From NCBI GenBank assembly GCA_964428315.1, contig CAYRXT010000007.1, positions 5,407-69,406 of the forward strand: a stretch of DNA of 64,000 nucleotides. The letters are read 5' to 3'. Source of the DNA: an uncultured Planctomycetales bacterium. Lineage in GTDB: Bacteria > Omnitrophota > Gorgyraeia > Zapsychrales > CAYRXT01. A program made the position numbers and the translations under genes. Below are positions 1 through 16,249 of the stretch, in pieces (the stretch's first letter is position 1; each line of letters opens with the position of its first letter). The notes beneath the pieces were generated by a model, which worked only from the letters and a program-made list of their open reading frames with translations, had not been told where the DNA came from and made no database searches.

Positions 1-500
1 TCGAGCCAGTTGACGCCGGCCGTCGTCAGTTCGGCCAGGTTGTCCCAGTTGATCGTCTCGTCCCAGTTGACGCCGGCGCCGCTCATGTAGGCGATGTCGT
101 ACCAGTTCACACCGGCCTCGCTCATGAACTCCAGGTCCTCCCAGTTAATGCCGCTGTCGCTCAGGACATCCAGGTCCGCCCAGTTGACGCCGGCGTCGGA
201 CATCACGTCGATGTCCAGCCAGTTGATCCCGGCATCGGAGAGGTCATTGATGCTGGTCCAGTTGATACCCTTGTCCGAGAGGATGTCGATATCCGCCCAG
301 TTGATGCCGGCGTCCGACATGTCGTTGACCGCGGTCCAGTTGATGCCCTTGTCGAACATGATGTCCAGGTCCGCCCAGTTCACGCCCGCGTCGCTCATGA
401 TGTCGATATCGAGCCAGTTGATGCCCGCCTCGGTGAGCTCGTAGATATCGTCCCAGTTGATCCCGGCCGCGGTCATGTCCGCGAGATCGCTCCAGGTGAC
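1..500 (-). repeat. Tandem 39-bp coding repeats encoding at least 12 copies of a 13-residue motif [S/T][D/E]AG[I/V]NW.D[I/L]D[I/V][M/L]. The array continues past the window edge. More degenerate NW units extend to about 720.
   Basis: The plus strand shows a periodic (c)cagttga(t/c)gccggc core every 39 nt. Translation reads ...TAAGINWDDIYELTEAGINWLDIDIMSDAGVNWADLDIMFDKGINWTAVNDMSDAGINWADIDILSDKGINWTSINDLSDAGINWLDIDVMSDAGVNWADLDVLSDSGINWEDLEFMSEAGVNWYDIAYMSGAGVNWDETINWDNLAELTTAGVNWL. Confidence 0.65.
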
Positions 501-3500
501 GTTGGCCTTGCTCAGCACCTCGATATCGTCCCAGTTGACGGGATCCATCTTGTCGGTGGTGGTCTTGATGCTGTCGGTGGTCGACTGGATGACCCCGACC
601 TGGTCCCAGTTGATGGTGTCGGTCACCGCCTTGATGGCGTCCACATTGGTGTCTATGGTATCGATCTTGGAATCGATCGTCGATATATCGCTCCAGTCGA
701 TGGTGTCGGTCTTGGCCTTGATGTCCGCCAGCTGGGAGGCGGTGACCGCGTAGAGCAGGCACTTGTCGTAGGTGGACCCGCCGTAGGAGATCTCCACGCA
801 GACCGAATACTCGTCGTCCAGGTCCGAGGGTGTCCAGCCGGTATAACTCTCGTAATCGAAATCGTCGCCGTCCGTCTTGGTCATCTCAAGCGAATCGCAG
901 TCACCGGGACACCCCGTATCCACCGCCCCGCTCCCCTGGTAGATGGTCAGGGTCCCGCTGGCCGCCTCCAGGTCCGCGACATAGCCGCCGTCATCGGAGA
1001 GCATGGCGCGGACCTCCCAGTTGTCGGCCGACTCGTCGTAGATGACGACGACATCGGCCACAGTCCCGCCCCCTCCGCTGCTGCCGCCGGTATTCGCGAT
1101 ATCCCGGACATTGTAGACCGCGTTGGAGGTGTAAGAGACCGCGCCGTTGCCGTCGTCGTAGGAAATGGTCACCACACCGTAGTAGATGTCGCTGGAATCC
1201 AAAGGCATCCAGCTGCCGTAACTGAAGATGTCATTCGCGTCCGGGTTGCCGATATCCGCCACCGTTGCGAGTTCCTCGGTCCCGTCGGGCTCATAAATCG
1301 TCAGTGAACAGGTGTCGTCGTTGTCCACGTCCACCACGTCCTGGTGGCCCTGCAGCCAGCATTTGACATAATAGGTCGACGCGGAATCGTCGTAAACGAC
1401 CTCGGACTTGACCTCCGTCGAAGGCAGGATGTCGAAGGCGCTGGAGGTCGCTGATGAGAGCCCCCCCGATGTGGCCGAAAGGTCGTAGTCGTTGCCGGCC
1501 CGGGTGATCCGCAGGTCGTTGAACGTGGCCACGCCGCTGGAAACGGTCTGCGTCAACGTCCCCAATAAAACACCGCTGGACGGGTTGGTGTTGATGGCGA
1601 CCGTGACGTTCGTCGAGTTGTCCTGCGCGATCACGGCGTTGTTGGAATCCCTCACCTGCACCTGCGGAAAATCCTGCAGGACGTCGAACTGGTAGGAATC
1701 TCCGGGGGACGTGCTGAAGTTCAGATTGTTGGGCCCCAGGAGCGTGGTCGTGCCCGATATGGCCACGGAACCCGAGGTGCTGACTGTCCCGGAGCTGAGG
1801 GTCACATCCGAGGGGGGATCATTGATGGATATCTCCACGGTCTCGCTGTCCGAGGCGCTGGAGGTCACATCCAGGACCGCGTAAACGCACAGGGCCTGCG
1901 TGGAAGAAATCTCGACCGAATCCGAAAAGGCCGAGGTCCCGTTGGCCGCGCTGAACCCGTCGGTATCGGTCGATCCGTACTGGGACTCGCCGCCGCCGTA
2001 GCTTTCCGAGGCGCAGTCATACGGCGAGGAGGTGTCCAGGTCGTAGTACAGCTTGATATTGTCCAGCCCGGTGGAGGCGTCCACGGTACCGCCTTCGGTG
2101 ATGGTGATGCCGGTAACGTTGCGCGCGGCGCTGTTTTCGGTGATCGTGAAGGCGCCGCCGATGTACTCGTTGACGTCGGGGATCTGCAGGCTGGCGGTCT
2201 GGGAGCCCGAAGTGCTGACCTCGGTCACTGCGAAAAACTCATCCGCGCCGATATCCGGCTGGGAGCTATCACGGCTGTCACCGTCGATGTCATCGGTAAT
2301 GGCAAGGTTGGAGTCTTCATCGAGGTCAGCCCCGTAGCTCCCCCATAAGGAATTAGAGTCATTTTTTAGGTGAAAATCTTCTGACCCTGCGGTTACGCTC
2401 TGAAAATAATCCGAATACGATGTCTGTTCCGTTACTCCATTAGCAAGGCTTGCTGAACTTGCCGATGTATCTGACGATACATTATTGGTAGAACCGGAAC
2501 CCCACGCCTGACCATCAAAATCAGAATTTGAATTATTGAGACAGACGTTGTTTTTTGCATAAAGCGTCGTCGTAGTCCCTCCAATATCCAAACCGTCATA
2601 GCTATCATAAACCGTGTTGTTATATATATAGGCCGTAGCCGTCCCCGTCACCCAAATACCCGCCCCCGAAGTAATTCCACGCAAGTAAACGATATTATTC
2701 CATATCTTCGCGACAACATCAGAATCTCCAAAAGAAATTCCCGTTGCAGAATTCGAAAAACTATTCGCATAAAGGATATTGTTAGAAACACGCAAATCAT
2801 TATTTGCAGAAATAGACTGATCACAAATTAAATAAGGATTGGAATATGTATCGTTGGACACTTTGATCTGTAACCCGTCAACACGCACATAATCATCGCG
2901 TATCCTAAAAATACGTTCATCATCTCCCGCTAAAGTCCTCTCTATACGATAGGCATCAGTATCATCCCACACACCCGCATGACGCTGACTGGTTCCCACC
3001 TCAGAAGTCTCTGTAGGCGTGTAAACATGAATATAATTAGCGGGACCTGTTGTATACCCATCGATATTGACCGTATTCGTATCCGCCCCGTCCCCATAAC
3101 AGGGCCAGTGCAGGACATATCCTTCCGTCAAGTCAGACGTATTCAAATAACTCGCGTCATCAGAATCATCCTCGGCACCGTCACCACCGCCGAGCGAATT
3201 AAACGCGCGTGAGATGGAATTGACGGTTACATCGGTCACGTCCGACGGCGTGTGTCCGGTAGCCGTGATGACGCTGTAGACGGTAGCGCTGGTGCGGCCC
3301 GAAATATAGGCGATCTTGTTGTCCGTATCATAGTCGATCTCATCGCCGACGCCCACATTATCGGCCTGGTCTTCGTCAAAGGTCGCCGTGCCGTCGGAAA
3401 TCGTCACCGTTAAGGTATCGGCGGTGGTCTTGAGATCTGAGGTGGACGTCCCCACCGAATAATACACGTTGACCACGTTCTCGTAAGACGAGCTGTATTC

Positions 3501-5633
3501 GTCGGCGCCGATGTCCGGGGCCGAGCTGTCGCGGGACTCGCCGTCGATGTCATCGGTCACGGCCAGGTTCGCATCCTCATCCAAGTCGGTCCCGTTGCCG
3601 CCCCACAGATTACTCGCCGTATCCCTCAGGTGCAGGTCCTCAAGCCCGTCGACGGTGATCCAGAAATAGTCCGTGTAACTCGACTGGCTGTCCACACTGC
3701 CGGTGCCGTCGGCGGTGGTGTCAGAGGCAACGTTGTAGGACTGGGTCATGGTGCCATCATAGCAATACTCATAGCTATTAGTCGAATCAACGTCGCCGAC
3801 ATAATTATTTGTGGCGGTTAACGTCCCCGCAGTAGCCCGCTGAATACCTCGTGCATTACCGCCTGTCGCTCCGCTTTGTTTAATATCGAACACCGTATTG
3901 TTGTAAAAATACGCGTTCAGAGTATTTCCAGCTTCATACACCATGAGCGCCGAAACATATGAATCACTATGTGCCGACACATTGGTCAGACTATAAATAA
4001 GCGTATTGCTCACTTTGAATGTTCCGCTTGTCCCGTATACCCCGCGGACACGGCTCTGATCCGTGTCATCAACCGTCGAATTGGTCAGGTCATGCACAAT
4101 ACAATGGGTCACCCGGACATCACTGGAAGCACTGGTACTGCCAACATAAATACCATTGAGCCCCTCGGCATTCGTAATACTGCTTCCGTCAATCTCTATC
4201 CCTTCAAACCGAACATAGTCCTCGTGATTCAGAATTATGTGATGGAAAGCACGGTCCGGACTGCTGGTTTCCTGCTGTATCCGAAATCCGGTACCGGCAA
4301 TACCGGTATGCCTCTGGCTCGCACCTACCTCAGAGGTGCCGTCAGGCGCGTATAATCGGATATATGTTTTGGGACCTGTCGTATACCCGTCGATGGTAAC
4401 CTGGTCATCAAGAGCCCCGTCGTTGTAACAGGGCCAGTGCAGGCGGTAATCGTTGGCCTGCAGGTCGGTGAGATTGAGATAACTCGCGTCGTCAGAGTCA
4501 TCTTCGGCGTCGGTCAGCGTGGTGAAAGTGCGGGTTATGGAGTTGACTGTGGCATCGGTCACATCCGAAGGCACGGCACCCGTGGCAGTAGTCACGGTAT
4601 AGACGGTGGAGCTGGTGCGGCCCGAGATATAGGCGTAGTTCGAGGTGTTGTAGGTGATCTTGTCACCCACCCCGACGTTATCGGCCTGGGCCTCGTCAAA
4701 GGTGGCCGTGCCGTCGGAGATCGTCACCGTTAAAGTGTCGGCGGTGGTCTTGAGATCCGATTCGTCCGTCCCCACCGAATAGTACACGTCCTTGACGACC
4801 AGGCCGTTGTCGTAGATATCCTTGATCTCATCGGCGCTGAGCGCCCGGTCAAAAATACCGACTTCGTCGATCAGCCCGTCGAAATACATCAGTTCATTCC
4901 AGCCGCCTTTACCGATCAAAAAACTGCGGCTGGAATTGTTGATGCCGCCGGAATAGGTCTGTGGATTATCCGATCCGTTGGAGTCAAGTTCCCCATCGAC
5001 ATAGATGCGGATGTCGGTCCCGTTATAGACCCCGGCAACATGATACCATGTCCCGGTCGAAAGGGTTGTCCCTCCGCTGGCGGTCGTGGTCGCGCTGCCG
5101 TCAGATGATAACGTCATACGCACATCCAAACCGCTTTCCACAAAAAACATGTAGGCCTTTTCATTGCCGGATGTCAAATATTTGTTAACAATAAACTGGT
5201 CGCTTCCGGTGTCGCTCTCCAACCGTATCCAGGCGCATATAGTCATACTGCCGGTAATGTCCAGTCCGGTCTGGCTCCCGTCTGTTATCTCCAGGTATTC
5301 GGTGTCTCCGGCCTCAAAATCAGCGCTGTAATTTCCCTGCTGGTAGGTGGAGGAGCGATCGATGGTGCCGGAGGTCTCTGAGAGGTCATTATCATTAGAG
5401 GTCTCATCATAGCGGGTGCCGGTCTCCTCGAAGAGCCAGATGCCCTGGGCGTTGTCGTCGTCGGCGTAGTTGGTGGCGAAGGCGTGTCCCGAGAGGCCGA
5501 GCACGGCCGCGGCGGCCAGCGCGGACACAAGAAGGCCCCGTGTCCATGCGTTGCCACGGCACGAAATCCTTTCGGACCTTGTCTTTCCTGATTGAAGACA
5601 AATAGTTTTTATTAATTTAAATAAAGAATCCAA
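1..5633 (-). CDS. Giant secreted multidomain surface (adhesin/S-layer-like) protein, partial because the C-terminus runs off the window start. Domains N-to-C: signal peptide; LamG/ConA-like lectin domain; two tandem ~420-aa parallel beta-helix modules; Ig-like region; 13-aa NW tandem repeats.
   Basis: Continuous minus-strand reading frame (codons on plus positions 3k..3k+2) with no stop between 5637 and position 1, hand-translated at both ends and through the middle. The other two minus frames and all plus frames show only short ORFs in the track. N-terminus ...RGLLVSALAAAAVLGLSGHAFA is a signal peptide with AXA cleavage. The first in-frame start is TTG at 5631-5633, after a TAA at 5637-5639; the start codon is uncertain. 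LamG motif ...TGTWYHVAGVYNGTDIRIYVDGEL...FDGLIDEVGIFDRALSADEI. Beta-helix PbH1-type turns NNTVFD, NNIVY, NNTVYD, NNVCLNNS. Both modules end ...DIDG(E/D)SRDSS.PDIGADE. Confidence 0.6.
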   Translation of the reverse strand, partial: MDSLFKLIKTICLQSGKTRSERISCRGNAWTRGLLVSALAAAAVLGLSGHAFATNYADDDNAQGIWLFEETGTRYDETSNDNDLSETSGTIDRSSTYQQGNYSADFEAGDTEYLEITDGSQTGLDITGSMTICAWIRLESDTGSDQFIVNKYLTSGNEKAYMFFVESGLDVRMTLSSDGSATTTASGGTTLSTGTWYHVAGVYNGTDIRIYVDGELDSNGSDNPQTYSGGINNSSRSFLIGKGGWNELMYFDGLIDEVGIFDRALSADEIKDIYDNGLVVKDVYYSVGTDESDLKTTADTLTVTISDGTATFDEAQADNVGVGDKITYNTSNYAYISGRTSSTVYTVTTATGAVPSDVTDATVNSITRTFTTLTDAEDDSDDASYLNLTDLQANDYRLHWPCYNDGALDDQVTIDGYTTGPKTYIRLYAPDGTSEVGASQRHTGIAGTGFRIQQETSSPDRAFHHIILNHEDYVRFEGIEIDGSSITNAEGLNGIYVGSTSASSDVRVTHCIVHDLTNSTVDDTDQSRVRGVYGTSGTFKVSNTLIYSLTNVSAHSDSYVSALMVYEAGNTLNAYFYNNTVFDIKQSGATGGNARGIQRATAGTLTATNNYVGDVDSTNSYEYCYDGTMTQSYNVASDTTADGTGSVDSQSSYTDYFWITVDGLEDLHLRDTASNLWGGNGTDLDEDANLAVTDDIDGESRDSSAPDIGADEYSSSYENVVNVYYSVGTSTSDLKTTADTLTVTISDGTATFDEDQADNVGVGDEIDYDTDNKIAYISGRTSATVYSVITATGHTPSDVTDVTVNSISRAFNSLGGGDGAEDDSDDASYLNTSDLTEGYVLHWPCYGDGADTNTVNIDGYTTGPANYIHVYTPTETSEVGTSQRHAGVWDDTDAYRIERTLAGDDERIFRIRDDYVRVDGLQIKVSNDTYSNPYLICDQSISANNDLRVSNNILYANSFSNSATGISFGDSDVVAKIWNNIVYLRGITSGAGIWVTGTATAYIYNNTVYDSYDGLDIGGTTTTLYAKNNVCLNNSNSDFDGQAWGSGSTNNVSSDTSASSASLANGVTEQTSYSDYFQSVTAGSEDFHLKNDSNSLWGSYGADLDEDSNLAITDDIDGDSRDSSQPDIGADEFFAVTEVSTSGSQTASLQIPDVNEYIGGAFTITENSAARNVTGITITEGGTVDASTGLDNIKLYYDLDTSSPYDCASESYGGGESQYGSTDTDGFSAANGTSAFSDSVEISSTQALCVYAVLDVTSSASDSETVEISINDPPSDVTLSSGTVSTSGSVAISGTTTLLGPNNLNFSTSPGDSYQFDVLQDFPQVQVRDSNNAVIAQDNSTNVTVAINTNPSSGVLLGTLTQTVSSGVATFNDLRITRAGNDYDLSATSGGLSSATSSAFDILPSTEVKSEVVYDDSASTYYVKCWLQGHQDVVDVDNDDTCSLTIYEPDGTEELATVADIGNPDANDIFSYGSWMPLDSSDIYYGVVTISYDDGNGAVSYTSNAVYNVRDIANTGGSSGGGGTVADVVVIYDESADNWEVRAMLSDDGGYVADLEAASGTLTIYQGSGAVDTGCPGDCDSLEMTKTDGDDFDYESYTGWTPSDLDDEYSVCVEISYGGSTYDKCLLYAVTASQLADIKAKTDTIDWSDISTIDSKIDTIDTNVDAIKAVTDTINWDQVGVIQSTTDSIKTTTDKMDPVNWDDIEVLSKANVTWSDLADMTAAGINWDDIYELTEAGINWLDIDIMSDAGVNWADLDIMFDKGINWTAVNDMSDAGINWADIDILSDKGINWTSINDLSDAGINWLDIDVMSDAGVNWADLDVLSDSGINWEDLEFMSEAGVNWYDIAYMSGAGVNWDETINWDNLAELTTAGVNWL
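2232..4790 (-). repeat. Intragenic tandem duplication: two ~1.29-kb copies (about 2232..3496 and 3497..4790), each encoding one beta-helix module of the giant protein.
   Basis: Near-identical DNA blocks, for example 3330-3440 vs 4640-4750 (…tcggcctgg.c.tcgtcaaaggt.gccgtgccgtcgga.atcgtcaccgttaa.gt.tcggcggtggtcttgagatc…). Both protein copies begin VYYSVGT..SDLKTTADTLTVTISDGTATFDE and end PDIGADE. Confidence 0.55.
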
Positions 5634-5989
5634 CGGTTACAGAACCCCTCGGTTCAGGCGGCCGGGCAGAAACCGCCGGCGGCCGGTCCGTTAACGTGTG
5701 TTTTATCCTGAAGGCGGGTTTGAGGTGAGCTGCAAAACTCGAAAGACAATATTAAGAAATAAGGAAAAAAATAATGCCGGTTTGCGTCCAAAGAAAGAAC
5801 AACCGCGCAGGCTCGGGTTTTGTCTCTCACTCTTCGCCCAATCCGTTAACATCAAGGTGTTGTCAACGTAAAAAATATAGCATCGATTGTTGAATGGGCA
5901 ATGCCCGGAACACAGAAATTCCCATTGAAAAGAAAGCGTTTTTATCTTTTTTACGGCTCCAAACCAATTGAAAACAAAGCCTTATACGA

Positions 5990-6024
5990 AAAACCGGTTC
6001 CACCTACGAGGTGGAACCGGTTTT
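5990..6024. repeat. REP-like hairpin, left flank of the RAYT.
   Basis: aaaaccggttccacc-tacga-ggtggaaccggtttt: a 15-bp perfect inverted repeat with a 5-nt loop. Confidence 0.8.
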
Positions 6025-6700
6025 ACTCCAAAATCGCCTTTTTGATCCTTGACAGCTCCCGCTGGTAACCGACCTGGTCTTCGACGAACGTCTTGTACGC
6101 ACCCGGATTTATATCAACGATATGGTCAAACTGACATAAAGAATCCGGGCGGTCCCGTTCAATATACTCCCGGTACGAGGAATAACGCCATTCCTCCGGA
6201 TAGTCGACCAGATGCGCGGTCACGGGATTCAGGTGGATATAGCGCGTCACATGCAAAAGGACCTCGTCTGTATCCACCAGGACTTTGCGCGTGCGCCCCT
6301 GCCACAGCGGCCCCTGCCGTTTATGCCGGAGGTTGAAATACCGGGAATAACTGTTGAGCACATCGCTCGTGTACCGTGGCAGGCTCTCCTCTTTGGTTTC
6401 CTCGACCAGAAGATGGAAATGCGTCGGCATAAGGCAATAGGCGATAAGACGGATACGCCTGCTCCGGTGGTTCCGCGGCGGGGAGGCCCCGCCCTTTGCG
6501 GGTCCGGTCCTGCGCCCCGGTGAGACGGGATGCATCCGGCGATAAAGAGAAAATTTCTGAGGCGGCTTTTTCAGCTGATAATAGTCCAGGGCATCGGTCA
6601 TGCGCATGTATTCGGCGTTGTTATTGAAGATCTTGTACCGGGCGATGCTCCGGTTAAAGACATGATAGACGGCGTTCATGGGAAGTTTTTTACGTTCCAC
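6023..6700 (-). CDS. REP-associated tyrosine transposase (RAYT) / IS200-like Y1 HUH transposase.
   Basis: Motifs YHVFNRS...IF, HUH motif LIAYCLMPTHFHLLVEE, GPLWQGRTRKVLVDTDEVLLHVTRYIHLNPV (catalytic Tyr region) and EEWRYSSYREY. The track start is GTG at 6700; ATG at 6679 (MNAVYHVFNRS) is the more likely start. The stop overlaps the left hairpin. Confidence 0.75.
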   Translation of the reverse strand: MERKKLPMNAVYHVFNRSIARYKIFNNNAEYMRMTDALDYYQLKKPPQKFSLYRRMHPVSPGRRTGPAKGGASPPRNHRSRRIRLIAYCLMPTHFHLLVEETKEESLPRYTSDVLNSYSRYFNLRHKRQGPLWQGRTRKVLVDTDEVLLHVTRYIHLNPVTAHLVDYPEEWRYSSYREYIERDRPDSLCQFDHIVDINPGAYKTFVEDQVGYQRELSRIKKAILE

Positions 6701-6750: not shown

Positions 6751-7965
6751 TCATTCCGTCAAAAACGGCGCGTTAATGATCACCGCCTTTTCCTCATCCA
6801 GCTCTTTCTCGGTCGGCGAATCGATCATGGACCGCATCTCCAGTTTCGCCTCCAGGATCTTCTCCTTGACCAGGTCGACATCGCCGGCGTTGGGCCTGAG
6901 ATAGAGATATTCCTGGTAATGCTTCAACGCCGTTTCCGTGTCCCCCAAAAATTCCCCGCTGACGAACGCCAGATTGTAATGCGCGGCCGCGTCATTGGGC
7001 ATGATCTCCAGGACCTTTTTATACTCGACCACGGACCGGCCGTAATCGCCGCGTTCATAGAAGAGATTCGCCAGGTTATAATGCAGGCGCGCCGAGTCCG
7101 CCCGCAGTTCCTGGTTTTCCGCGTTAAGCTGGCGGATCTTCTCCGCCGCGGTCTTGACGTCATCGCTCATGTCCTCAAAGGTGGTCTGGACTTCCTCCTC
7201 GAGCTTGTCCAGCAGTTCCAGCGACTCCCGGCGGAGTTCCTGGTTTTCCTCTTTAAGCGCCGCGATTCTCCGGTCGGTTTCGCGCTGGACGGTCTCCTGT
7301 TTTTCGATGGCGGCGGCACGCAGACGCTCGTTTTCTTCACTCAAAAAACTGATCCTCTCGGCGGCCATCTTCAGCCTGTCATCGGTTGCCTCCATGTCTC
7401 CGGGGTCCCAGAAGAGTCCCATCTGTTTAATCTTCTCTTTTTCCTTCTGCAGGGCACTCAGCTCGGCGATCTTATCATCCAGTTCCTTTTCCAGGCCCGC
7501 CATCCGGGCGTTGAGAGCCTCCAGCTCTTTGCCTGTCGACTCCCGGCTGTCGTCGAGCGCGTCGATCTCGGCCTGGAGGTCATCCCTCTGCCGGATGAGG
7601 TTGTTGATACGGTTTCGCCGGATGGTGCTCTGGCCGCGCAGTTCCTTCAGCTCGCTCTCAAGGGTCTTGCGCTCGTCGATCAGCTGTTTGTTCTCCTCCA
7701 GGGCGTTCCTGAGGCTCTGGTTGATGATCACCATCTGCTTTTCGTTGAGATCGAGTGCGGGGACATCCTCTCCAGCCGCCGGAAGCGCGTCATCATCCCC
7801 CACCGCCGTCTCGTCATCGACAGAAGGGGCGATCTGCTCGATCTGGATCTCCGTCTCAACCACCGCCCTCTCCTGGGCCAGCACGCACGGAACAATCAGC
7901 AGGCCAAGCGAAATACCAACACCCGTGCGGACCGCGGACCGCAAACCTTCACGCATTAAATCCAT
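6751..7965 (-). CDS. Secreted or membrane-anchored coiled-coil protein with C-terminal TPR repeats. It may be an MshN-like partner of the secretin.
   Basis: Long heptad-rich E/K/L/R segment (…ELKELRGQ…LQAEIDALDD…LEKELDDKIAELSALQKEKEK…) followed by TPR-like GDYGRSVVEYKKVLEIMPNDAAAHYNLAFV…ALKHYQEYLYLRPNAG. The preferred start is ATG 7965 (MDLMREGLRSAVRTGVGISLGLLIVPCVLAQ, signal-like), with a GAGGAAGGG RBS 5 nt upstream. The track ORF extends to 8025. Confidence 0.5.
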   Translation of the reverse strand: MDLMREGLRSAVRTGVGISLGLLIVPCVLAQERAVVETEIQIEQIAPSVDDETAVGDDDALPAAGEDVPALDLNEKQMVIINQSLRNALEENKQLIDERKTLESELKELRGQSTIRRNRINNLIRQRDDLQAEIDALDDSRESTGKELEALNARMAGLEKELDDKIAELSALQKEKEKIKQMGLFWDPGDMEATDDRLKMAAERISFLSEENERLRAAAIEKQETVQRETDRRIAALKEENQELRRESLELLDKLEEEVQTTFEDMSDDVKTAAEKIRQLNAENQELRADSARLHYNLANLFYERGDYGRSVVEYKKVLEIMPNDAAAHYNLAFVSGEFLGDTETALKHYQEYLYLRPNAGDVDLVKEKILEAKLEMRSMIDSPTEKELDEEKAVIINAPFLTE

Positions 7966-8052
7966 TAGCCCTTCCTCTTGTTTGTCCTTTTTGCTTTCTC
8001 GTCCCGCTGACGGGGAGCGTTTCACCCGGCAGGGAGAAGTGGTTTTCGAGCC

Positions 8053-9705
8053 TCACATCTCCTTGAGTTCCTGCGGCTCCTCATAATCTTTGAACGGCTT
8101 GATCGTCCCCCGCCATTGTTTATACCGGTCGTCCGCCCTTACGACATGTGGCGTGATAAAGATAACGATCTCCGTCTTCGTTATGGTGTCGCTCTGGTTG
8201 CGGAACAAGGCGCCCAGCAACGGGATATCCATCAAAAGGGGGACGCCTTTTTCCACATGGCTCTTGTCGTCCTTTTTTAACCCGGCAAGGATGATGGTAT
8301 TCCCGTCCTTGACCATGACGGTCGTCTCCACCTCGGTCTTGTTGACCTGGGGGATCCCGCCGCCCTGTGATTCGATCTTGGCCGTGACCGTGGAGATCTC
8401 CGGCTTCAGGCTCATGGTGACAAATCCGTCGTCGTTGATGGTCGGCGTCACCAGCAGTTTCAACCCCACATCGACAAAACGCACGTCTTCGCTGGTGATC
8501 GCGTTGTCGCCCGTGCCCGATGTAGTGGAAATGATGTAGGGCACGGAGTCCCCTATATGGATCTTGGCCTCTTCATTGTTGGTCACCAGGAGCTTGGGAT
8601 TGGAGAGGATCTTCGTGTCGCTGACCTGCTGGAGCGCGCGCAGATTGATCTCAAACTGATCCGGCGTGATATCGCCGTAGCCGATCTTGCCGAATTCTGA
8701 ATAAAGGGCGTCGCTGCTGCTGAGGTTGTTTTCATCAAGAAAGATACTTCGGAAGCTGAGGTCTCTCAGACCGGAGTGTTCGCTGCGCTTGAAATCCGTC
8801 TCCCAGTCAATGCCGAAATCAAACTGGGGCTTAAATGTAATCTGGATGACCCTGGCTTCGATGAGGACTTCCTTCGTCTGGGCATCCAGCTCTTGAATCA
8901 GCTCCTCGACCTCCTTGCGCCGTCCGGGAAGCGCCCGGACGATCAGCTTGTTGGACCGCTCGTCTGGCGTGATGCTGCCGACCGCATTGGCGTCGATTCG
9001 CGCACGCAGCTTCTCGGCGACCACATCGGCCTTGGCGTACTGCAGGCTGAAGACCATCGACTCGACGGGCATGTCGATCCGGCGGATGGCCGCCATCATC
9101 TTCTCCAGGGTCTGCGGCGTGTCGATCATCGCCACGGTCCCGGTGTCTTCGTCAATGATAATCTTGCCCAAATTGCTCTTGATGGAATCCAGCGCGGCAA
9201 GGATATAGCTCGGCTTGGCGTAATGCAGGCGGACGATTTTTACCTCCTGCTTGTCGGAAAAGCGCCGGCCGTAAAGGGCGGAATATTCCGATTCCGTCAT
9301 GACATGGACGATGCCGTTCTTGACCTCGTAAGCCAGGTTGTTGGAAATCAGGATGATGTCCAGGGCGTCCCTGATGGAAACGCTCTTGAGGTACAGCGTC
9401 ACCCGGCCGGTCACGGTTGGATTGGTGACGACGTTAAACTCTCCCTTCAGCGCCAGAAACTTTATGACGTCCACCATGTTCATGTCGCGCACGTCGAGGG
9501 TGATCTTGCGGCCCAGCCCCTCAACGTCGTCCGGGCCGGTCTCCTCACTGAATTCCGAGCCTGCGTCGGTCCCGCTGACACCCGGTACCGGCATGGCATG
9601 CGCCTGCGGCGTGACGCCGGCAGGCTGAGCCTTCAGAGTCCCGGCAAAAACCGCGATGCCGAAAACCGTCGCCGCGATGATGACGCATCCTTTAACACTG
9701 CGCAT
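8053..9705 (-). CDS. Secretin of the GspD/PilQ/MshL family (type II secretion / type IV pilus outer-membrane channel).
   Basis: Signal peptide MRSVKGCVIIAATVFGIAVFAGTLKAQ. N-terminal secretin-N-like domains. C-terminal secretin domain …VETTVMVKDGNTIILAGLKKDDKSHVEKGVPLLMDIPLLGALFRNQSDTITKTEIVIFITPHVV. Confidence 0.8.
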   Translation of the reverse strand: MRSVKGCVIIAATVFGIAVFAGTLKAQPAGVTPQAHAMPVPGVSGTDAGSEFSEETGPDDVEGLGRKITLDVRDMNMVDVIKFLALKGEFNVVTNPTVTGRVTLYLKSVSIRDALDIILISNNLAYEVKNGIVHVMTESEYSALYGRRFSDKQEVKIVRLHYAKPSYILAALDSIKSNLGKIIIDEDTGTVAMIDTPQTLEKMMAAIRRIDMPVESMVFSLQYAKADVVAEKLRARIDANAVGSITPDERSNKLIVRALPGRRKEVEELIQELDAQTKEVLIEARVIQITFKPQFDFGIDWETDFKRSEHSGLRDLSFRSIFLDENNLSSSDALYSEFGKIGYGDITPDQFEINLRALQQVSDTKILSNPKLLVTNNEEAKIHIGDSVPYIISTTSGTGDNAITSEDVRFVDVGLKLLVTPTINDDGFVTMSLKPEISTVTAKIESQGGGIPQVNKTEVETTVMVKDGNTIILAGLKKDDKSHVEKGVPLLMDIPLLGALFRNQSDTITKTEIVIFITPHVVRADDRYKQWRGTIKPFKDYEEPQELKEM

Positions 9706-9733
9706 AAATTTCCATCCCCTAACTTCCCGGCTT

Positions 9734-10444
9734 TTAAAGATTCATCATCATCTCTTCGGATTTATAGCCCAGGATGACTTCGTCGCCGCGGATCGCCTTG
9801 ACCTTCAGGGCGTCGATGCTCTCTCCCACGGCCACGAAATGCGTAATGCCGTTTACCGTGTCCTCGATCATCGCGATGGGGGCCCCTTCGTCCTCCACGC
9901 TGGAAATCCCCACCAGCCTGAGATTCTTCGTGAGTGCCGTAATCTGCACGGCTTCGGGCGCTTCGTCAGGTGATTTTTCCACCACCTTCTTCTCGTAGGG
10001 CTGAAAAATATTCCTGTGTTCCAGCAGGCTCAGGTATAGGGAGACATCCGGCGAAGACGGTACCGCGATCTGCATCGACCCTTTGCTCCCCTCATCCCGA
10101 GAAACAGCGATCTCCTGCCTGGTGTAACGCAGTCCGTTTACAATATTCCAAACGAAAAGCAGGCATACAACCATAAGGGCGGCCAGGAGGAGATTGTTCA
10201 CTTCCCTCATCCCGAAGCTCGGCCGGCCAGAACCGCTGCGAAGGCCGGAAAAGAGTCCCTCCAGGGCCGGCGGCAGGTTCAGGCCCGGGAGGCCCAGTCC
10301 CTTGACTGAGGTAGCGACCGCCGCCGCCTCCATTTCCCCCGAGGCTTCTTCCTTTTCGGCCTCTACGGCCGGGGCATCACCTCCCTGCTCTTCAATCAGA
10401 CGCAGGAGTTTCTGCTCGCCTGTTTCTTTTTTTTTTGCTGACAT
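9734..10444 (-). CDS. Single-pass membrane protein, possibly a GspC/PilP-like secretin-interacting component.
   Basis: Charged N-terminus, one TM helix (LLLAALMVVCLLFVWNIV) and a periplasmic C-terminal beta-rich segment (…LRLVGISSVEDEGAPIAMIEDTVNGITHFVAVGESIDALKVKAIRGDEVILGY) resembling HR/PilP-type domains. A poly(A)10 tract covers codons 3-6. Confidence 0.35.
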   Translation of the reverse strand: MSAKKKETGEQKLLRLIEEQGGDAPAVEAEKEEASGEMEAAAVATSVKGLGLPGLNLPPALEGLFSGLRSGSGRPSFGMREVNNLLLAALMVVCLLFVWNIVNGLRYTRQEIAVSRDEGSKGSMQIAVPSSPDVSLYLSLLEHRNIFQPYEKKVVEKSPDEAPEAVQITALTKNLRLVGISSVEDEGAPIAMIEDTVNGITHFVAVGESIDALKVKAIRGDEVILGYKSEEMMMNL

Positions 10445-10453
10445 AGTGTGTCC

Positions 10454-10501
10454 AGGTCACCAGGTCACCAGGTCACATGTGACCTTGTGACTTTGTGACT
10501 T
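10454..10501. repeat. Triple tandem inverted-repeat array: (aggtcacc)x3 followed by (tgtgac[ct]t)x3. It is a 48-bp imperfect palindrome with a perfect 16-bp core, aggtcacatgtgacct.
   Basis: aggtcacc aggtcacc aggtcaca | tgtgacct tgtgactt tgtgactt lies in the 65-nt gap between the exeA-like stop (10510) and the downstream ATG (10444), ending 9 nt before that start codon. Confidence 0.7.
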
Positions 10502-10509
10502 CGCGCCGT

Positions 10510-11406
10510 TCACGCCAAATCCTCCGTCTTCTGATAAGCCGGCTTGCTGATCATCGTCTTGCGGTCCCATCCCGCCTGTCGCTCCTTATCCAGGACATCC
10601 CTCACGACAGACTTGTCGGCGACAGGCTTGTTCTGCATAACCATCTCCTTCAGGACGCGGTGGCAGAGCATCGTGATACTGCGGGGGTATCCACGCGAGT
10701 AATTGTATATCTCGCTGACGGCATCCGGAGAGAACAATTCCATCGCAGAGGCATACCCGGCCTTCCGGATCCGGTATTCTATCATTTCCTTTGTCTCTTT
10801 GGGGCCCAGCGGATTCAGCGTGTACTTAAAACTTATCCGGTCAATGAAATTGGACATGTTCGCTATCTTCGAATATAACTCCATCTGTCCAAGAAGCACA
10901 AGCTGTATAAGTTTGTATTCATTGGTTTCGAAATTCAGCAAAACCCGCAGGACCTCCAGCGTTGTGAGGTCCAGCTTCTGCGCCTCATCAATAATGAGGA
11001 TGACGGTCTTCTTCTCCTCGACACTCTTCTGGATCAGAAATCTTTCAACGGCGTCACGCAGATCCAGGATGCGTTCAATGGCCGGCATGTCCGACGGCTC
11101 CAGTTCGATATTAAAATTTCTTACCAGTGATATCAAAAACTGCTCTTCATTTTCAAAGGCCGGATTGAGTATCATGTGAAATATCAGATCGCCGCGCCTT
11201 CGCAGTTCTTGAACAAGCTTGCGCGACAGGCTCGTCTTCCCGGTCCCGATATCACCGAATATGACTGTGAGACCACGGCGCAAACGCAGTTCAATCAGGA
11301 TGTTGGTCAAGGCCATATCGTGTTCGCGCGTAAGATAGAAAAATTCCGGATCGGGGCTCGTTGAGAATGGTTCTTTTTTAAAACCAAGCAGACTGTGATA
11401 GGACAT
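10510..11406 (-). CDS. ExeA/GspA/MshM-like AAA ATPase (secretin assembly/piloting ATPase).
   Basis: N-terminus MSYHSLLGFKKEPF, Walker A GDIGTGKTSL and Walker B ILIIDEAQ, with ExeA-family architecture. An AT-rich promoter region lies upstream (11407-11528). Confidence 0.75.
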   Translation of the reverse strand: MSYHSLLGFKKEPFSTSPDPEFFYLTREHDMALTNILIELRLRRGLTVIFGDIGTGKTSLSRKLVQELRRRGDLIFHMILNPAFENEEQFLISLVRNFNIELEPSDMPAIERILDLRDAVERFLIQKSVEEKKTVILIIDEAQKLDLTTLEVLRVLLNFETNEYKLIQLVLLGQMELYSKIANMSNFIDRISFKYTLNPLGPKETKEMIEYRIRKAGYASAMELFSPDAVSEIYNYSRGYPRSITMLCHRVLKEMVMQNKPVADKSVVRDVLDKERQAGWDRKTMISKPAYQKTEDLA

Positions 11407-11528: not shown

Positions 11529-12569
11529 TTAACAAAGTCGAGTTGATTGAGAAGACTTTTTTGACTTTTTTTTCGACGAGTGGCACAACATGAGATTCCA
11601 AATACCGACGATAAATCCATAGGTCCGCGTGAAAGACCTCAGGAACATGACGGCGCACAAATAAAGTCTTTCAGTCCAGAACGCGCACATCCGGAAAGAA
11701 TAGGCGGTTTCCGTAATGCCTAATAACACTGTTCCGGTTAAAACAGTTATTCCGCCACCGGTTACACCCAGGGCCCACATTGCAGTTCCGGCCGCGATCA
11801 CACAGACTAAAACAGGTTCCATCATGTCTTTCACAAATGTATAGTCGTCCCCCCGACTCATGCCGGGATGATCCCTGTACATCTTGGCCCTCCAGAATCC
11901 GTGGCGCGCCTGTTCCCGCAAATACAAAACCAGGTTTTCCGGAAACACATGGTTCACTTCGACTTTTTTCGCGAACCTTATTGCGTATCCGGCCTTAAAG
12001 ATCCTGTAACTTAAGTCATTATCCTCACCGCTGGCAGATCTATATGTCTCATCAAAACCGCCGACCTCCATCATCACATTTCTTCTGACACAAAAGTTAT
12101 AACTTCCGAACGACTTAGGATAATCGGGCATTAACGTGCGATGGCGAAAGATGATCTCACGGTAAATGCATCTCGCCAGAAGGCTATCATTATTCTTAAT
12201 TCCGTAACTGCCTGATACTACAGCTACTTTTGTTTCTGCCAAATATCCGAGCATGGTTTTGATCCATGTCTCTTTCGGCTCGCAATCCGCATCTGTAAAA
12301 AAGACAACCTCTCCGGTGCTGATCTTCCAGCCCCTGTTTCGAGCGGTCGCCGGTCCGGCGTTGTCTTGATAAAAATATTGGACTTGGGGGAAGCCTTTCA
12401 CAACCTCTCTCGTGGCATCCGTAGATCCGTCATCAACGACAATGATTTCCTTTTCTCCAGGATAATTCTGACACAACAGGGCCTTTATAGTTTCCCTAAG
12501 AGAAACCGCGCTGTTGTAGGCGGGGATAACAATGCTGACACGAGAATTCTTAGAGTAGCCGTCCGTCAT
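11529..12569 (-). CDS. Family-2 glycosyltransferase with C-terminal TM helices (GtrB/ArnC-like polyprenyl-phosphate sugar transferase type).
   Basis: VSIVIPAYNSAVSLRETIKAL…IIVVDDGSTDAT…FFTDADCEP (DXD). Hydrophobic C-terminal helices. Confidence 0.75.
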   Translation of the reverse strand: MTDGYSKNSRVSIVIPAYNSAVSLRETIKALLCQNYPGEKEIIVVDDGSTDATREVVKGFPQVQYFYQDNAGPATARNRGWKISTGEVVFFTDADCEPKETWIKTMLGYLAETKVAVVSGSYGIKNNDSLLARCIYREIIFRHRTLMPDYPKSFGSYNFCVRRNVMMEVGGFDETYRSASGEDNDLSYRIFKAGYAIRFAKKVEVNHVFPENLVLYLREQARHGFWRAKMYRDHPGMSRGDDYTFVKDMMEPVLVCVIAAGTAMWALGVTGGGITVLTGTVLLGITETAYSFRMCAFWTERLYLCAVMFLRSFTRTYGFIVGIWNLMLCHSSKKKSKKSSQSTRLC

Positions 12570-13225
12570 CTTTTTTGAGCGACAACATACAGGATCATTC
12601 CAAAAAGCCTTCCGGCCATCTTGTCCGGTGATAATCGAAGCGGAAACGTATTGAGCCCCCCCTCCCGTACTGCGCGAAGACCGTTTCGTTCATGCAGCCG
12701 GCGCAAAGCGGACAAGGTGAAAGGGCGTTCGTCGATTCCCGGCATGTAGAAGGGGCGTATGATCTCCCAGGGCGACCAACGGTTGGGGACGAAAGTCGCG
12801 ATCACGCCGTTCTCTCCAAGGACAGAAACAAAATTGCGCAGGATCCTGTCCTGATCTTGCGCAACAAAATGTTCGAACAACCCGTCCGAAAAAATCAGAT
12901 CAAACCGTCCCGCCGTCTTTTTAGACAGCTCCTCCTTGAGCAGATCGGCCTGCAGAAGATCCGCCCTGCCATCGGTCATGTGCCTGGTCATGGCCAGGGA
13001 CTGATCGGCAAAATCAACAGCGGCCGTGCGCATGCCCCTGTCGCAAAAAAACCTTGAAAAAAAACCGCTGCCGCATCCCGCGTCCAGGGCCCGTCTTCCA
13101 GAAACGGTCAGCGGATCAAGGACGCGCATAATCCGCCGCTTGGACCAGCTGACGTTTTCCGCACTCCTTTTCTGTCTCCGCCAGAATTGATCCCAATTCC
13201 GTGATGTGGGCGTATCGAGTTCCAT
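12566..13225 (-). CDS. Class I SAM-dependent methyltransferase.
   Basis: Motif I LDAGCGSGFFSRFF and acidic loop AVDFAD. The stop overlaps the GT2 start by 4 nt. Confidence 0.7.
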   Translation of the reverse strand: MELDTPTSRNWDQFWRRQKRSAENVSWSKRRIMRVLDPLTVSGRRALDAGCGSGFFSRFFCDRGMRTAAVDFADQSLAMTRHMTDGRADLLQADLLKEELSKKTAGRFDLIFSDGLFEHFVAQDQDRILRNFVSVLGENGVIATFVPNRWSPWEIIRPFYMPGIDERPFTLSALRRLHERNGLRAVREGGLNTFPLRLSPDKMAGRLFGMILYVVAQKR

Positions 13226-13275: not shown

Positions 13276-13635
13276 TTATTTTGCATCCCCCACCCTCTCC
13301 CTGAGCTGCTCAATTTCAAGTTCCAGCATGCCGATGCGCTGCGCCATGACGGCGTTGCGGCCGTCTTGCTGGCAGATGAACGTTGTCAACAAAAGGCTCA
13401 GAAACACAAAGAAAGCCAGCAGCGTAAAAAAGATAAAATTGCTGGGCAATTCGAAACCCGCCCACCGGGCCAGGCCAAAAAGCCAGTCATCAAAAATGAT
13501 AAACACGATGCCGGCAACAGAAAGGATGATCCAGCCGACGGCGTATTTAAAGGTGAGCTTTCCCCGGCGGATCAATTCAATGACGATCATCAAAAACATC
13601 AGCGGCATCAAAAAGGCGAAGAGCTTAAGGTCCAT
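13276..13635 (-). CDS. DUF2304-type small 4-TM membrane protein (GtrA-like partner of GT2 enzymes).
   Basis: 119 aa with four predicted TM helices and a C-terminal amphipathic tail. This family typically neighbours GT2 genes. Confidence 0.5.
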   Translation of the reverse strand: MDLKLFAFLMPLMFLMIVIELIRRGKLTFKYAVGWIILSVAGIVFIIFDDWLFGLARWAGFELPSNFIFFTLLAFFVFLSLLLTTFICQQDGRNAVMAQRIGMLELEIEQLRERVGDAK

Positions 13636-13636
13636 A

Positions 13637-14353
13637 TCACGTCCCCTTCTTTCTCGTTCTTAACATGTTGATAAGGATAGCGGTTGTCACCTTGAGCATG
13701 TAGTACAGAGCGACAAGAAAGCGTATAGAAGAATGTCCTTCCCGGCGGGCACGCATCCTGACGGGGACCTCGGCGATACGCAGCCGGGACCGCCGCGCTA
13801 TAACAATCGCTTCGGGCTCGGGAAAATCCTGGGGATATTCACCGGCGAACTCTTCAACCGCTTTTCGGTTATAAGCGAAAAAGCCGGACGTCGGATCCGT
13901 CACCTTCATGCCGATAAGCCATCCGATCAGACGCGAAAAAAAGTTTATGCCGAAGCGTCTCAGACGAGATGACCGGAAACCCCGGTGCGGCGGTAAAAAG
14001 CGGCTCCCGATCACGACGTCCGCCATGTCCTTGTGCAGCAGGTCAAGGAGATTCCCGGCACAGGCCGGATCATGCTGCCCGTCACCGTCGACACGGACAA
14101 TTTGATCGAAATCCTGCCGCAGGGCGTATTTCAATCCCGTCTGCACGGCGCCGCCCACCCCTACGTTAAAAGGCAGGGAAATCACGGACACGCCCTTCTC
14201 CCTGGCCGTGACGGCCGTCTCATCATCTGAACCGTCATTGACCACCAGGATCTCTGCCTCGAGGGGCAATCCCTTGATTTCATCGATGAGACCTCCGATA
14301 TTTCCGGATTCATTGTAGGCAGGCACTATGAAAAGAAGCTTTGCCTTATTCAT
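13637..14353 (-). CDS. Family-2 glycosyltransferase, Dpm1/GtrB catalytic-domain type (polyprenol-phosphate hexose synthase-like).
   Basis: LLFIVPAYNESGNIGGLIDEI…ILVVNDGSDDET…RVDGDGQHDP…SGFFAYNRK. The track ORF extends to 14494, but the homologous start is MNKAKLLF at 14353. Confidence 0.75.
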   Translation of the reverse strand: MNKAKLLFIVPAYNESGNIGGLIDEIKGLPLEAEILVVNDGSDDETAVTAREKGVSVISLPFNVGVGGAVQTGLKYALRQDFDQIVRVDGDGQHDPACAGNLLDLLHKDMADVVIGSRFLPPHRGFRSSRLRRFGINFFSRLIGWLIGMKVTDPTSGFFAYNRKAVEEFAGEYPQDFPEPEAIVIARRSRLRIAEVPVRMRARREGHSSIRFLVALYYMLKVTTAILINMLRTRKKGT

Positions 14354-14439
14354 AGAACGCTTGTCTTTCCGAGGGAGCGAGAAAAACGTTATACGCAAGT
14401 GGAGCCGGGAAAACCCGGCAGGGTAACCGCAGCAGCGAG

Positions 14440-14808
14440 TTATCGGACAATCCCGCCTTCTTTTAAGCGGCCCATGAGACTGCAATCGATGCAAAAAGAT
14501 TCGGCCTTGATCACGATGCCGCCTTTCAGCCTCTTATCGATACACTCTTTGATCCCGACGGACGGGCCCCATTTGCGCCGCACGAGCCGCTGTATTGCCC
14601 GAAGGTTAACCGTCTTGATCGTCTTATGCGTAATGACCGTCACCTCATCGGGAGAATCCGCACCTTCCCCCAGTCTTAAGACATCAAGCCGTTTAAGCGC
14701 GGATTCGACAAGAATGTTGTCCAGCATCTTTTTCAGAACGAAGACAATAATGATGGCTATGCCGATCTGGACAAGGATAATCTTCAGCAAGACAGCGGCC
14801 GCGTCCAT
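14440..14808 (-). CDS. Hypothetical small membrane-anchored protein, apparently translationally coupled to the upstream peptidase gene.
   Basis: Its start lies 1 nt after the ctpA-like stop. N-terminal TM helix AAVLLKIILVQIGIAIIIVFVL. No recognisable domain. The overlapping long plus-strand ORF is antisense to ctpA and is rejected. Confidence 0.3.
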   Translation of the reverse strand: MDAAAVLLKIILVQIGIAIIIVFVLKKMLDNILVESALKRLDVLRLGEGADSPDEVTVITHKTIKTVNLRAIQRLVRRKWGPSVGIKECIDKRLKGGIVIKAESFCIDCSLMGRLKEGGIVR

Positions 14809-16114: not shown

Positions 16115-16178
16115 GATTGCCCGCCGATTCCCATCAGGTGAACAGGTCTCCTCTCCGGCCCTCCGTTAGATCAAGACC

Positions 16179-16219
16179 AAAAAAATCCCCCGCTCCAAAC
16201 AATCTGCCGCAAGCGGGGG
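16179..16219 (-). terminator. Rho-independent terminator downstream of the EF-hand gene.
   Basis: Minus-strand CCCCCGC…GCGGGGG stem followed by ATTTTTTTGG, 31 nt after the stop at 16250. Confidence 0.55.
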
Positions 16220-16249
16220 CATTCCCTCTCAAGACAAAACCAAGCAGTT

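Follow-up and report, generated by a model that had tools for sequence, protein, structure and literature searches.

We analyzed a four-gene module built around an outer-membrane secretin in a 64,000-nucleotide (nt) stretch of DNA, hereafter the window, which covers positions 5,407 to 69,406 of contig CAYRXT010000007.1 (GenBank assembly GCA_964428315.1) from an uncultured bacterium of the phylum Omnitrophota. Coordinates are window positions, and all of the window genes discussed lie on the minus strand. The module encodes, in this order, a 298-amino-acid (aa) AAA+ ATPase of the MshM/GspA (ExeA) type that is predicted to be cytoplasmic (10510..11406), a single-pass inner-membrane protein with a homology-region (HR)-like domain, hereafter the HR protein (236 aa; 9734..10444), the secretin (550 aa; 8053..9705), and a periplasmic coiled-coil/TPR protein (424 aa; 6751..8025). 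The genes are separated by gaps of 65, 28, and 27 nt. A scan of the coding strand found no terminator-like site between them, and the promoter and terminator scans gave counts not above shuffled expectation.

The ATPase has Walker A (GTGKTS) and Walker B (IIDEAQ) motifs, matches Pfam families of the AAA_22 type only (AAA_22, 1.2e-19), and has no transmembrane (TM) segment and no peptidoglycan-binding domain. Its top NCBIfam match is TIGR03015, an ExeA/MshM-like PEP-CTERM ATPase model (186 bits against a cutoff of 324.5), and the sole PDB match obtained with its sequence was a marginal one to ORC5 (E=0.0036). The HR protein, which exceeds the Pfam T2SSC gathering score of 27 with 32.2 bits, is predicted to have its N-terminus inside, one TM helix, and a C-terminal HR-like domain of the GspC/GspB/PilP type, without a PDZ or coiled-coil C-terminal domain and with no Pfam T2SSB match at E<=0.01. 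Conserved motifs are KETAEQKLL in the cytoplasmic part, RNIFxPYE, and LKLVGISW...MIED..TYFL..GE...V.VKTIYAD. It scored below the NCBIfam cutoffs for GspC_delta (24 bits; cutoff, 150) and GspC (21 bits; cutoff, 101.6), and a profile of 19 orthologs gave a single, weak PDB match, to the HR domain of GspC (chain 7oio_A; E=0.38). The 424-aa protein has a hydrophobic N-terminus (signal peptide or anchor) with no clear lipobox, a coiled coil at about residues 90-300 that is reflected in coiled-coil-type Pfam matches, and TPRs at 300-390 (TPR_11, 4e-12); its NCBIfam matches are weak ones to the TPR region only (PrsT, Tgl, and PilW). A reading made from the sequence alone, without database searches (hereafter the sequence-only reading), had placed these four open reading frames (ORFs) here and likened them to MshM/ExeA, GspC/PilP, a secretin, and MshN. 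The ORFs are present and their Pfam and NCBIfam matches agree with the assigned families, so that the analogies are borne out at the level of domains; no MshM- or MshN-specific model was among the NCBIfam matches of the module proteins.

The secretin (Pfam Secretin, 1.1e-51; two copies of Secretin_N; STN/N0) consists of a signal peptide, the N0 domain, two ring-building N domains, and the secretin barrel. Classification with hidden Markov models, which the sequence-only reading had proposed as a choice among GspD, PilQ, MshL, and Tad RcpA, placed it in the GspD/PilQ class, with RcpA far lower and every NCBIfam score under its cutoff: 277 for PilQ (TIGR02515; cutoff, 284.35), 254.3 for GspD (TIGR02517; cutoff, 351.35), and 189.4 for MshL (TIGR02519; cutoff, 250.2). 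In a profile search of the PDB, GspD (162 bits) and PilQ (160 bits) stood well apart from pIV (81), RcpA (65), and InvG (48). An AlphaFold2 model (predicted local distance difference test [pLDDT] score, 70) showed domains at residues ~67-145, 154-210, 215-273, and 279-522, and the best Foldseek matches of this model were PulD, ExeD, and GspD. No AMIN domain was found by Pfam or in the model. The protein is thus a secretin of the GspD/PilQ class whose fold and domain order are closest to PulD, ExeD, and GspD. No Tad genes were found in the window or in the loci read in relatives (below). Two HofQ models also matched the secretin, and these matches, together with a CinA gene at 58240-58707, are what a competence pseudopilus channel for DNA uptake, of the HofQ/PilQ type, would have in its favor. 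The HofQ scores of 199 and 161 bits are far under their cutoffs of 554 and 598, no ComEA, ComEC, or DprA gene occurs near the locus in the loci read, and CinA is 48 kb away and not specific to competence. We regard this role as highly improbable.

Downstream of the module lies the 5' part of a gene for a large secreted protein (1..5633; at least 1877 codons), an open frame that begins with a TTG at 5633 and runs past the window start. Its product has a signal peptide ending in AFA|T, followed by a LamG domain (Laminin_G_3), two modules of ~430 aa whose homologs carry Pfam Beta_helix, further domains, and an array of 13-residue repeats with the consensus xSDAGINWxDIxV, here called INW repeats, with 39/78-bp tandem DNA repeats at 61-428. 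An AlphaFold2 prediction of the repeat region from the single sequence was unusable (pLDDT, 45) and suggested, with low confidence, a single short helix in each repeat. A homology search with the giant protein returned mostly proteins of 1,000-3,200 aa from other phyla, many with LamG or Beta_helix domains. The best match to the window protein, and the only true positional ortholog from that search, was P0121 of the Omnitrophota loci L083/L084, which at 2809 aa is also the closest complete ortholog. An rRNA operon or pseudogene at 762-6023 was ruled out: Rfam reported two tRNAs elsewhere, and a six-frame check showed an open frame of 1878 codons that continues past the window edge.

The module and the giant gene are separated by a RAYT/IS200-like Y1 transposase-like gene (6023..6700; Pfam Y1_Tnp, 26.6 bits; REP_Tyr_transpos, 63 bits against a cutoff of 80). 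No tblastn homolog was found at the locus in 82 related loci, and the gene is a lineage-specific insertion rather than a part of the machine discussed below. At this position most relatives have two secreted paralogs of ~550 aa with the FGE-sulfatase fold, followed by a very long ORF. The window has no FGE-fold paralogs by tblastn, and its long ORF stands without them, as in some other species.

The window itself lacks genes for pilins, GspE/F, and the platform, as the sequence-only reading had observed. Pfam scans, in which ORFs of at least 150 aa and one 119-aa DUF2304 ORF were taken as genes, found no GspE, GspF, platform, PilMNO, or prepilin genes among the window ORFs. Searching the window by tblastn with a relative's GspE, GspF, GspG, GspK, PilMN, PilO, STT3, and Atp proteins yielded nothing but a paralog of the Peptidase_MA_2 protein encoded in that relative's secretion cluster. 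A scan for class III signal peptides (the prepilin motif) that does recover the relatives' pseudopilins found none in the window.

Relatives of the secretin with 57-71% identity all belong to Candidatus Omnitrophota. To place the module in a wider context, an alignment of these secretins was scanned against species-representative genomes. This gave 80 loci in 80 assemblies, with secretin orthologs of 55-71% identity in 80 Omnitrophota species. tblastn with the window proteins recovered a collinear block on one strand in all 80 loci, in the order GcvT-GcvP1-GcvP2-LipB-(EF-hand)-S41-GT2-DUF2304-(MT)-GT2-(ATPase)-HR protein-secretin-TPR protein, where GT2 is a family 2 glycosyltransferase (GT) and MT a methyltransferase. 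The HR protein and the TPR protein were each found in 78 of the 80. TPR-protein orthologs range from 164 to 640 aa and all have hydrophobic N-termini; the length of the coiled coil varies and the TPR end is conserved. Of the 73 loci in which the position of the ATPase gene is covered, 43 have the gene and 30 do not; in the latter the GT2 gene directly adjoins the gene for the HR protein. The ATPase can therefore be classed as accessory.

The giant gene belongs to the same arrangement. An INW-repeat ORF with at least 10, and usually about 100, xNW motifs follows the module in every one of the 27 loci whose downstream sequence extends for 6 kb or more; 24 of these ORFs have 1000 aa or more, and 23 are truncated where the sequence ends. 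They are homologous to each other and to the window protein through the repeat array and partly through the N-terminal modules. Contigs end within 10 kb of the secretin far more often downstream (62/80) than upstream (24/80), and assemblies therefore break systematically in the repetitive giant gene, making the secretin module look orphan in many metagenome-assembled genomes. The coordinates of contig CAYXGG010000001.1 imply a giant gene of ~20 kb, and those of chromosome OY759724.1 allow up to ~70 kb if that record is circular. As far as gene order goes, giant gene and secretin are conserved neighbors and not adjacent by coincidence: the linkage of module, glycosyltransferases, and giant gene pointed out by the sequence-only reading recurs throughout the phylum sample, and the synteny comparison that it had called for does not support chance adjacency.

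The missing components were found in relatives, on the far side of the giant gene. Four genomes were read through their PilMN homologs: OY759724.1 (the L039 genome), JBDRMG010000018.1 (the L003 contig), CAYXGG010000001.1 (the L014 contig), and the species of L001/L002/L004. In these relatives the giant gene is followed on the same strand by a gene for a ~430-aa protein, an F-type ATPase-like operon, and a GspE-to-GspM cluster. In all four, the cluster encodes an MshEN-T2SSE-PilZ protein (~740 aa), T2SSF, Peptidase_MA_2, a T2SSG pseudopilin, two N_methyl proteins, a T2SSK-like protein, a PilM-PilN fusion, a PilO/GspM-like protein with PilO and T2SSM_b matches, and a TPR protein, in that order, and no secretin or GspC was found in this region. 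GspE begins ~15 kb downstream of the secretin and on the same strand in JBDRMG010000018.1, whose secretin is the most similar to that of the window (71% identity), and ~32 kb from it in CAYXGG010000001.1. The second half likewise lies downstream of the secretin on the same strand of the complete chromosome OY759724.1; for the species of L001/L002/L004, a different contig (L088/L091) carries it. Across relatives, the separation between secretin and GspE half ranges from 15 to ~75 kb.

The wider set of PilMN-centered loci, obtained from a metagenome scan with a PilMN alignment (a single PilMN protein as query had given no confirmed matches), has the same composition. Among the 36 with at least 7.5 kb of upstream sequence, GspE was found in 32, GspF in 33, GspG in 35, and GspK in 35, with F-ATPase genes farther upstream in 27; a secretin was found within 10 kb on either side in 0 of 85 loci. 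At locus L086, the major pseudopilin passes the NCBIfam equivalog cutoff for GspG (155; cutoff, 89), and the other components fall below theirs, with 579 of 630 for GspE, 373 of 424 for GspF, 29 of 44 for GspI, 79 of 130 for GspK, and 33 of 60 for GspM. The GspE gene scores about equally against PilB (571; cutoff, 676). No PilT was found in the loci read. The sequence-only reading had described the module as orphan, with the caveat that the remaining type II secretion system (T2SS) or type IV pilus genes might lie elsewhere, and had proposed a search for pilin and GspE/F genes. That search found none within the window and found them linked to the secretin in relatives, beyond the giant gene, as the caveat allowed. 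The orphan reading is not supported: this secretin-less cluster, on the same strand beyond the giant gene and the F-type ATPase-like operon, comes close to the complete partner operon that had been named as evidence against it.

On these grounds, and with a probability of roughly 70%, we interpret the module as the outer-membrane and periplasmic half of a split machine of the type IV filament superfamily, closest to a T2SS and occurring across the Omnitrophota. The module is probably not an orphan; its inner-membrane half would lie beyond the adjacent giant gene, as read in relatives, and its orphan appearance probably arises because the window ends inside that gene. Judging from the relatives, it is very likely that the genome from which the window came has a GspE-to-GspM cluster of its own. 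The genes are identified, their order is conserved, and no secretin stands near the GspE-to-GspM cluster; we infer that the two halves function together and that the second half in this genome lies past the window start.

The functions of the individual parts can be proposed from their families. The secretin would form the outer-membrane channel. The HR protein, as the GspC/GspB/PilP analog, would bind its N0 domain and tie it to the inner-membrane platform; the HR domain of GspB binds secretin N0, and GspB acts with either the GspA ATPase or a pilotin (PMC9239104; PMC4098917). The MshM/GspA-type ATPase may be an accessory partner of the HR protein in secretin assembly that is dispensable in ~40% of species, and the coiled-coil/TPR protein, which occupies the position of MshN, PilF, PilW, or Tgl, may assemble or stabilize the secretin or serve as a periplasmic spacer; assembly and spacing are roles attributed to those proteins as well. 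The inner-membrane half would be made up of GspE (with MshEN and PilZ domains), GspF, GspG, the two N_methyl pseudopilins, and the GspK-like protein, together with the PilM-PilN fusion in a GspL-like role, the PilO/GspM-like protein, and the second TPR protein. Between the halves would be encoded the INW-repeat giant protein, the membrane-anchored ~430-aa protein, and the F-type ATPase-like complex.

Several points weigh against a split T2SS-like machine. The assignment of the HR protein is weak (32 bits in Pfam, E=0.38 in the PDB), and the secretin, the HR protein, and the ATPase all remain under their equivalog cutoffs. No prepilin peptidase (GspO/PilD) is annotated in the relatives' loci read, where no dedicated search for it was made. 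The second half was read in relatives only, as the window ends within the giant gene of its own genome. The conserved synteny also spans unrelated housekeeping genes (gcv, lipB, the S41 protease, and the ATPase operon); gene order alone is therefore no proof of functional coupling, and part of the conservation may come from the general genome backbone. Seymour et al. (2023; PMC10066038) report Tad RcpA in many Omnitrophota, and our search for a secretin near the second half covered the PilMN loci and 10 kb on either side. Finally, the halves are not strictly coinherited, because loci L083/L084 have lost the core of GspE and all of GspF through GspK while retaining the secretin module, the giant gene, the F-type ATPase-like operon, PilMN, and PilO.

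These two loci deserve a closer description. After the giant gene they encode a 427-aa protein, the F-type ATPase-like operon, a 206-aa PilZ protein, PilM-PilN, a PilO/T2SSM_b-like protein, and a TPR protein, with the STT3 gene on the opposite strand. The 206-aa protein (L083 25427-26047; L084 9378-9998) is a GspE remnant whose N-terminus aligns with GspE residues 6-61 and whose C-terminus aligns with residues 546-738; an MshEN N-terminus and a PilZ domain at the C-terminus are left, with the ATPase core deleted. Such a locus is what would be expected of a truly reduced, pilus-less device, in which the secretin, HR protein, ATPase, and TPR protein export or anchor the giant protein without GspE, GspF, or pseudopilins, and which might act with PilMN/PilO and the F-type ATPase-like complex. 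The giant protein of these loci, P0121, is the best match to that of the window, which itself carries no GspE/F or pilin genes. Only one of five linked relatives has this arrangement, however, and GspE is retained in 32 of the 36 PilMN loci; GspE and GspF could also be encoded elsewhere in the L083 genome, and identities of shared proteins place the window no nearer to L083 than to relatives with the full set. In addition, we know of no secretin that exports a protein without a filament-assembly or other inner-membrane motor. The minimal export or anchoring device suggested by the sequence-only reading is thus not supported as the general explanation, and we consider it quite unlikely; it stays a minority reading because L083/L084 keep the rest of the locus.

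A different account of the same genes is that they build a type IVa or MSHA-like attachment or motility pilus, with the giant gene and the F-ATPase operon lying between the halves as genome backbone and the giant protein not being handled by the secretin. Seymour et al. class the Omnitrophota clusters as type IVa pilus (T4aP) clusters by TXSScan and report T4aP expression in V. archaeovorus. PilQ is the top NCBIfam score of our secretin, just under the cutoff, the partner cluster has PilM, PilN, and PilO homologs as in T4aP PilMNOPQ, and a TPR protein adjoins. The platform based on a PilM-PilN fusion, the MshEN domain on the relatives' assembly ATPase, and the grouping of secretin, MshM-like ATPase, and TPR protein recall the Vibrio MSHA locus (mshI-J-K-L-M-N-E-G...), with the trio mirroring MshL-MshM-MshN. 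In that locus, MshI is likewise a fusion of the PilM/PilN type, and the counterparts of PilO and PilP are MshJ and MshK, respectively. The plainly unrelated gcv, lipB, and S41 genes within the synteny also fit a backbone explanation. The locus departs from both models in several respects. Unlike T4aP systems, it has a secretin without AMIN, an HR protein that is TM-anchored rather than a lipoprotein like PilP, and no PilT in the loci read, and its TPR protein differs from the TPR pilotins PilF, PilW, and Tgl in having a long coiled coil and no clear lipobox. Unlike MSHA, the order is ATPase, HR protein, secretin, TPR protein, the pilins are GspG/I/K-like, the giant gene divides the locus, and the MshL score (189 vs 250) is below those for PilQ and GspD. 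The major pilin passes the GspG equivalog cutoff, with minor pilins that are GspI/GspK-like, and the best Foldseek matches of the secretin are T2SS secretins. Moreover, the giant gene stands between the halves on the same strand wherever this can be read, which would be unusual for unrelated genes. A pilus is therefore a rather unlikely explanation, though one that has to be kept in view.

The comparison with T2SSs, to which we consider the split machine closest, rests on four likenesses. The secretin has N0 and ring-building N domains with PulD, ExeD, and GspD as the closest structures; a single-pass HR protein adjoins an ExeA-type P-loop ATPase, as in GspA-GspB; the relatives' pseudopilin is GspG by cutoff, with GspE, F, I, K, and M as top matches below theirs; and a large secreted protein is encoded within the cluster. 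Known precedents for the last arrangement are pulA beside the pul genes and sslE/yghJ inside the T2SS-beta operon of E. coli. There are also clear differences. The Omnitrophota cluster is divided in two by the giant gene and the F-type ATPase-like operon, a PilM-PilN fusion replaces GspL, GspE has a C-terminal PilZ domain, and GspG alone passes an equivalog cutoff. The ATPase lacks the TM segment and peptidoglycan-binding domain of ExeA and resembles the shorter MshM. No GspS-type pilotin and no GspO were seen in the loci read (GspO was not the object of a dedicated search). Finally, the candidate cargo would have 2,800 to perhaps ~20,000 aa, far larger than any T2SS substrate known to us. Such a mosaic of T2SS, MSHA, and T4aP features, with an optional GspA-like ATPase and one lineage with a gutted GspE, should be useful in tracing the reduction or repurposing of such machines.

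The position of the giant gene between the halves, its Sec signal peptide, and its T2SS-like partner genes together suggest that the Sec-exported repeat protein is the cargo of the machine or a surface fiber, a proposal that we make tentatively and at somewhat less than even odds. A bolder and improbable extension is that the whole supercluster encodes one attachment or predation organelle, with the giant repeat protein as a non-pilin fiber that is threaded through or held by the secretin. Its parts would be the secretin, the HR and TPR proteins, the FGE-fold pair, the INW giant fiber, and the ~430-aa protein as an anchor, along with the F1-like ATPase without an obvious a-subunit, the GspE-to-GspM half, and the GT2 and STT3 proteins; the fiber might be deployed or moved by the pseudopilus, by the F-type ATPase-like motor, or by both. 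At L083, only the GspE core, GspF, and the pseudopilins have been lost, which hints that the secretin-fiber part could work without a pseudopilus. The organelle would be a diderm analog of the gliding machinery of Mycoplasma mobile, in which giant surface legs are paired with an F1-like motor.

The Omnitrophota are ultra-small, uncultured, and probably predatory or parasitic bacteria, whose means of attaching to hosts and whose giant-protein functions still await explanation. The collinear block described here offers a testable candidate for the export route or surface organelle of one giant-protein family throughout the phylum. It also corrects an annotation error, in that the secretin seems orphan because assemblies and windows break in the repetitive giant gene. 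Parts of this picture have been published. Seymour et al. (PMC10066038) report T4aP clusters in nearly all Omnitrophota, often less than 10 kb from a non-respiratory type 2/3 F-type ATPase, a description that fits the GspE-to-GspM half beside the F-type ATPase-like operon, and they handle giant ORFs separately from these clusters. West-Roberts et al. (2023; 10.1101/2023.11.21.568195) describe giant genes, of TM-rich "Archaeovorin" or dockerin types, preceded by a T2SS/type IV pilus-like locus that encodes more than 10 subunits and includes gspD/E/F, rcpC, and a Rotamase_2 peptidyl-prolyl isomerase (PPIase), and a 2026 preprint (10.64898/2026.06.07.730766) found 13 of 14 giants to be flanked by secretion or pilus genes. 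All three sources concern the same phylum as the present locus, which resembles those of the latter two in that secretion or pilus genes adjoin the gene for a large or giant secreted protein. It differs from the West-Roberts locus in that its upstream part has three to four genes without GspE/F, rcpC, or PPIase and its giant belongs to a Sec-signal INW-repeat family. Identity with their gspD/E/F-rcpC-PPIase locus was rejected, as no rcpC or PPIase gene lies within 10 kb, and so was a dockerin-type giant, as Pfam gave no dockerin or TSP3 match. Searching the three sources by term, we found no passage on the order secretin half-INW protein-F-ATPase-GspE-to-GspM or on the INW-repeat family. Because T4aP/F-ATPase loci and giants beside T2SS-like loci of Omnitrophota are already published, the novelty is modest.

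The genes between the giant gene and the second half have features of their own. The F-type ATPase-like operon (L084 3810-9360; upstream in L085-L088) has an unusual order: a 516-aa catalytic-type subunit, epsilon, c, a b/delta-like OSCP protein, gamma, and a second catalytic subunit. At L086 the second catalytic subunit passes the atpD (beta) cutoff and scores 422 bits against the Mycoplasma gliding model MMOB1670, below the cutoff of that model. The gene lists of these operons contain no match to ATP-synt_A (the a-subunit). The ~430-aa protein is represented by the 427-aa protein directly downstream of the giant gene at L083 (18502-19785), which has a signal peptide, a coiled-coil-rich body, a C-terminal TM helix, and no Pfam match. 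ORFs of similar size (437-462 aa) occupy the same position in L003 and L052.

Upstream of the module, Pfam and NCBIfam identify a GT2 (11529-12569), an S-adenosylmethionine-dependent methyltransferase (12566-13225), a 119-aa DUF2304 protein (13276-13635), and a second GT2 of the polyprenyl-phosphate sugar synthase type (13637-14494). This GT2-DUF2304-MT-GT2 set may be functionally linked to the module, for example through protein glycosylation. In L084-L088 and many of L089-L168, an STT3 oligosaccharyltransferase gene on the opposite strand ends the supercluster on its far side. Together, the GTs and STT3 may constitute a protein-glycosylation route for pilins or for the repeat protein. N-W-S/T sequons in some of the repeats could, speculatively, be glycosylation sites; the position after N-W varies between repeats, and the window's own repeats mostly have no S/T there.

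The same invariable presence of the GT2-DUF2304-MT-GT2 genes upstream would also suit a module that exports a polysaccharide or glycoconjugate made by these GTs. XrtA/PEP-CTERM exopolysaccharide loci carry an ExeA-like ATPase and a TPR protein, the one strong NCBIfam match of our ATPase is TIGR03015, and the TPR protein weakly matches PrsT. Both matches are far below cutoff (186 vs 324.5 and 28 vs 312, respectively), no exosortase, Wza/Wzc-type, flippase, or polymerase genes were found in Pfam scans of the window, and the ATPase is absent from 30 of 73 loci. Secretins are, to our knowledge, not polysaccharide exporters, and we find this explanation scarcely credible.

Farther upstream is an S41 C-terminal processing peptidase with a PDZ domain (14810-16705). 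It has a tblastn match in 62 of the 80 related loci, and in about half of them a small EF-hand protein adjoins. The Pfam content of the remaining window is LipB, GcvP/T, a dcw cluster, riboflavin and fatty-acid genes, LigA, and other housekeeping genes. At 22147-25222 the dcw cluster stops at FtsQ-FtsA with no FtsZ gene after them; FtsA is followed instead by a tRNA (24452-24525), a 186-aa plus-strand ORF, and a 787-aa ORF without a Pfam match. The 787-aa ORF has a tblastn match in one related locus (L059), with few loci extending that far upstream. Within the same dcw cluster, between murC and murG, is the gene for the Peptidase_MA_2 protein (29590-30375), a 35%-identical paralog of which is encoded between GspF and GspG in the secretion clusters of most relatives (L085-L088).

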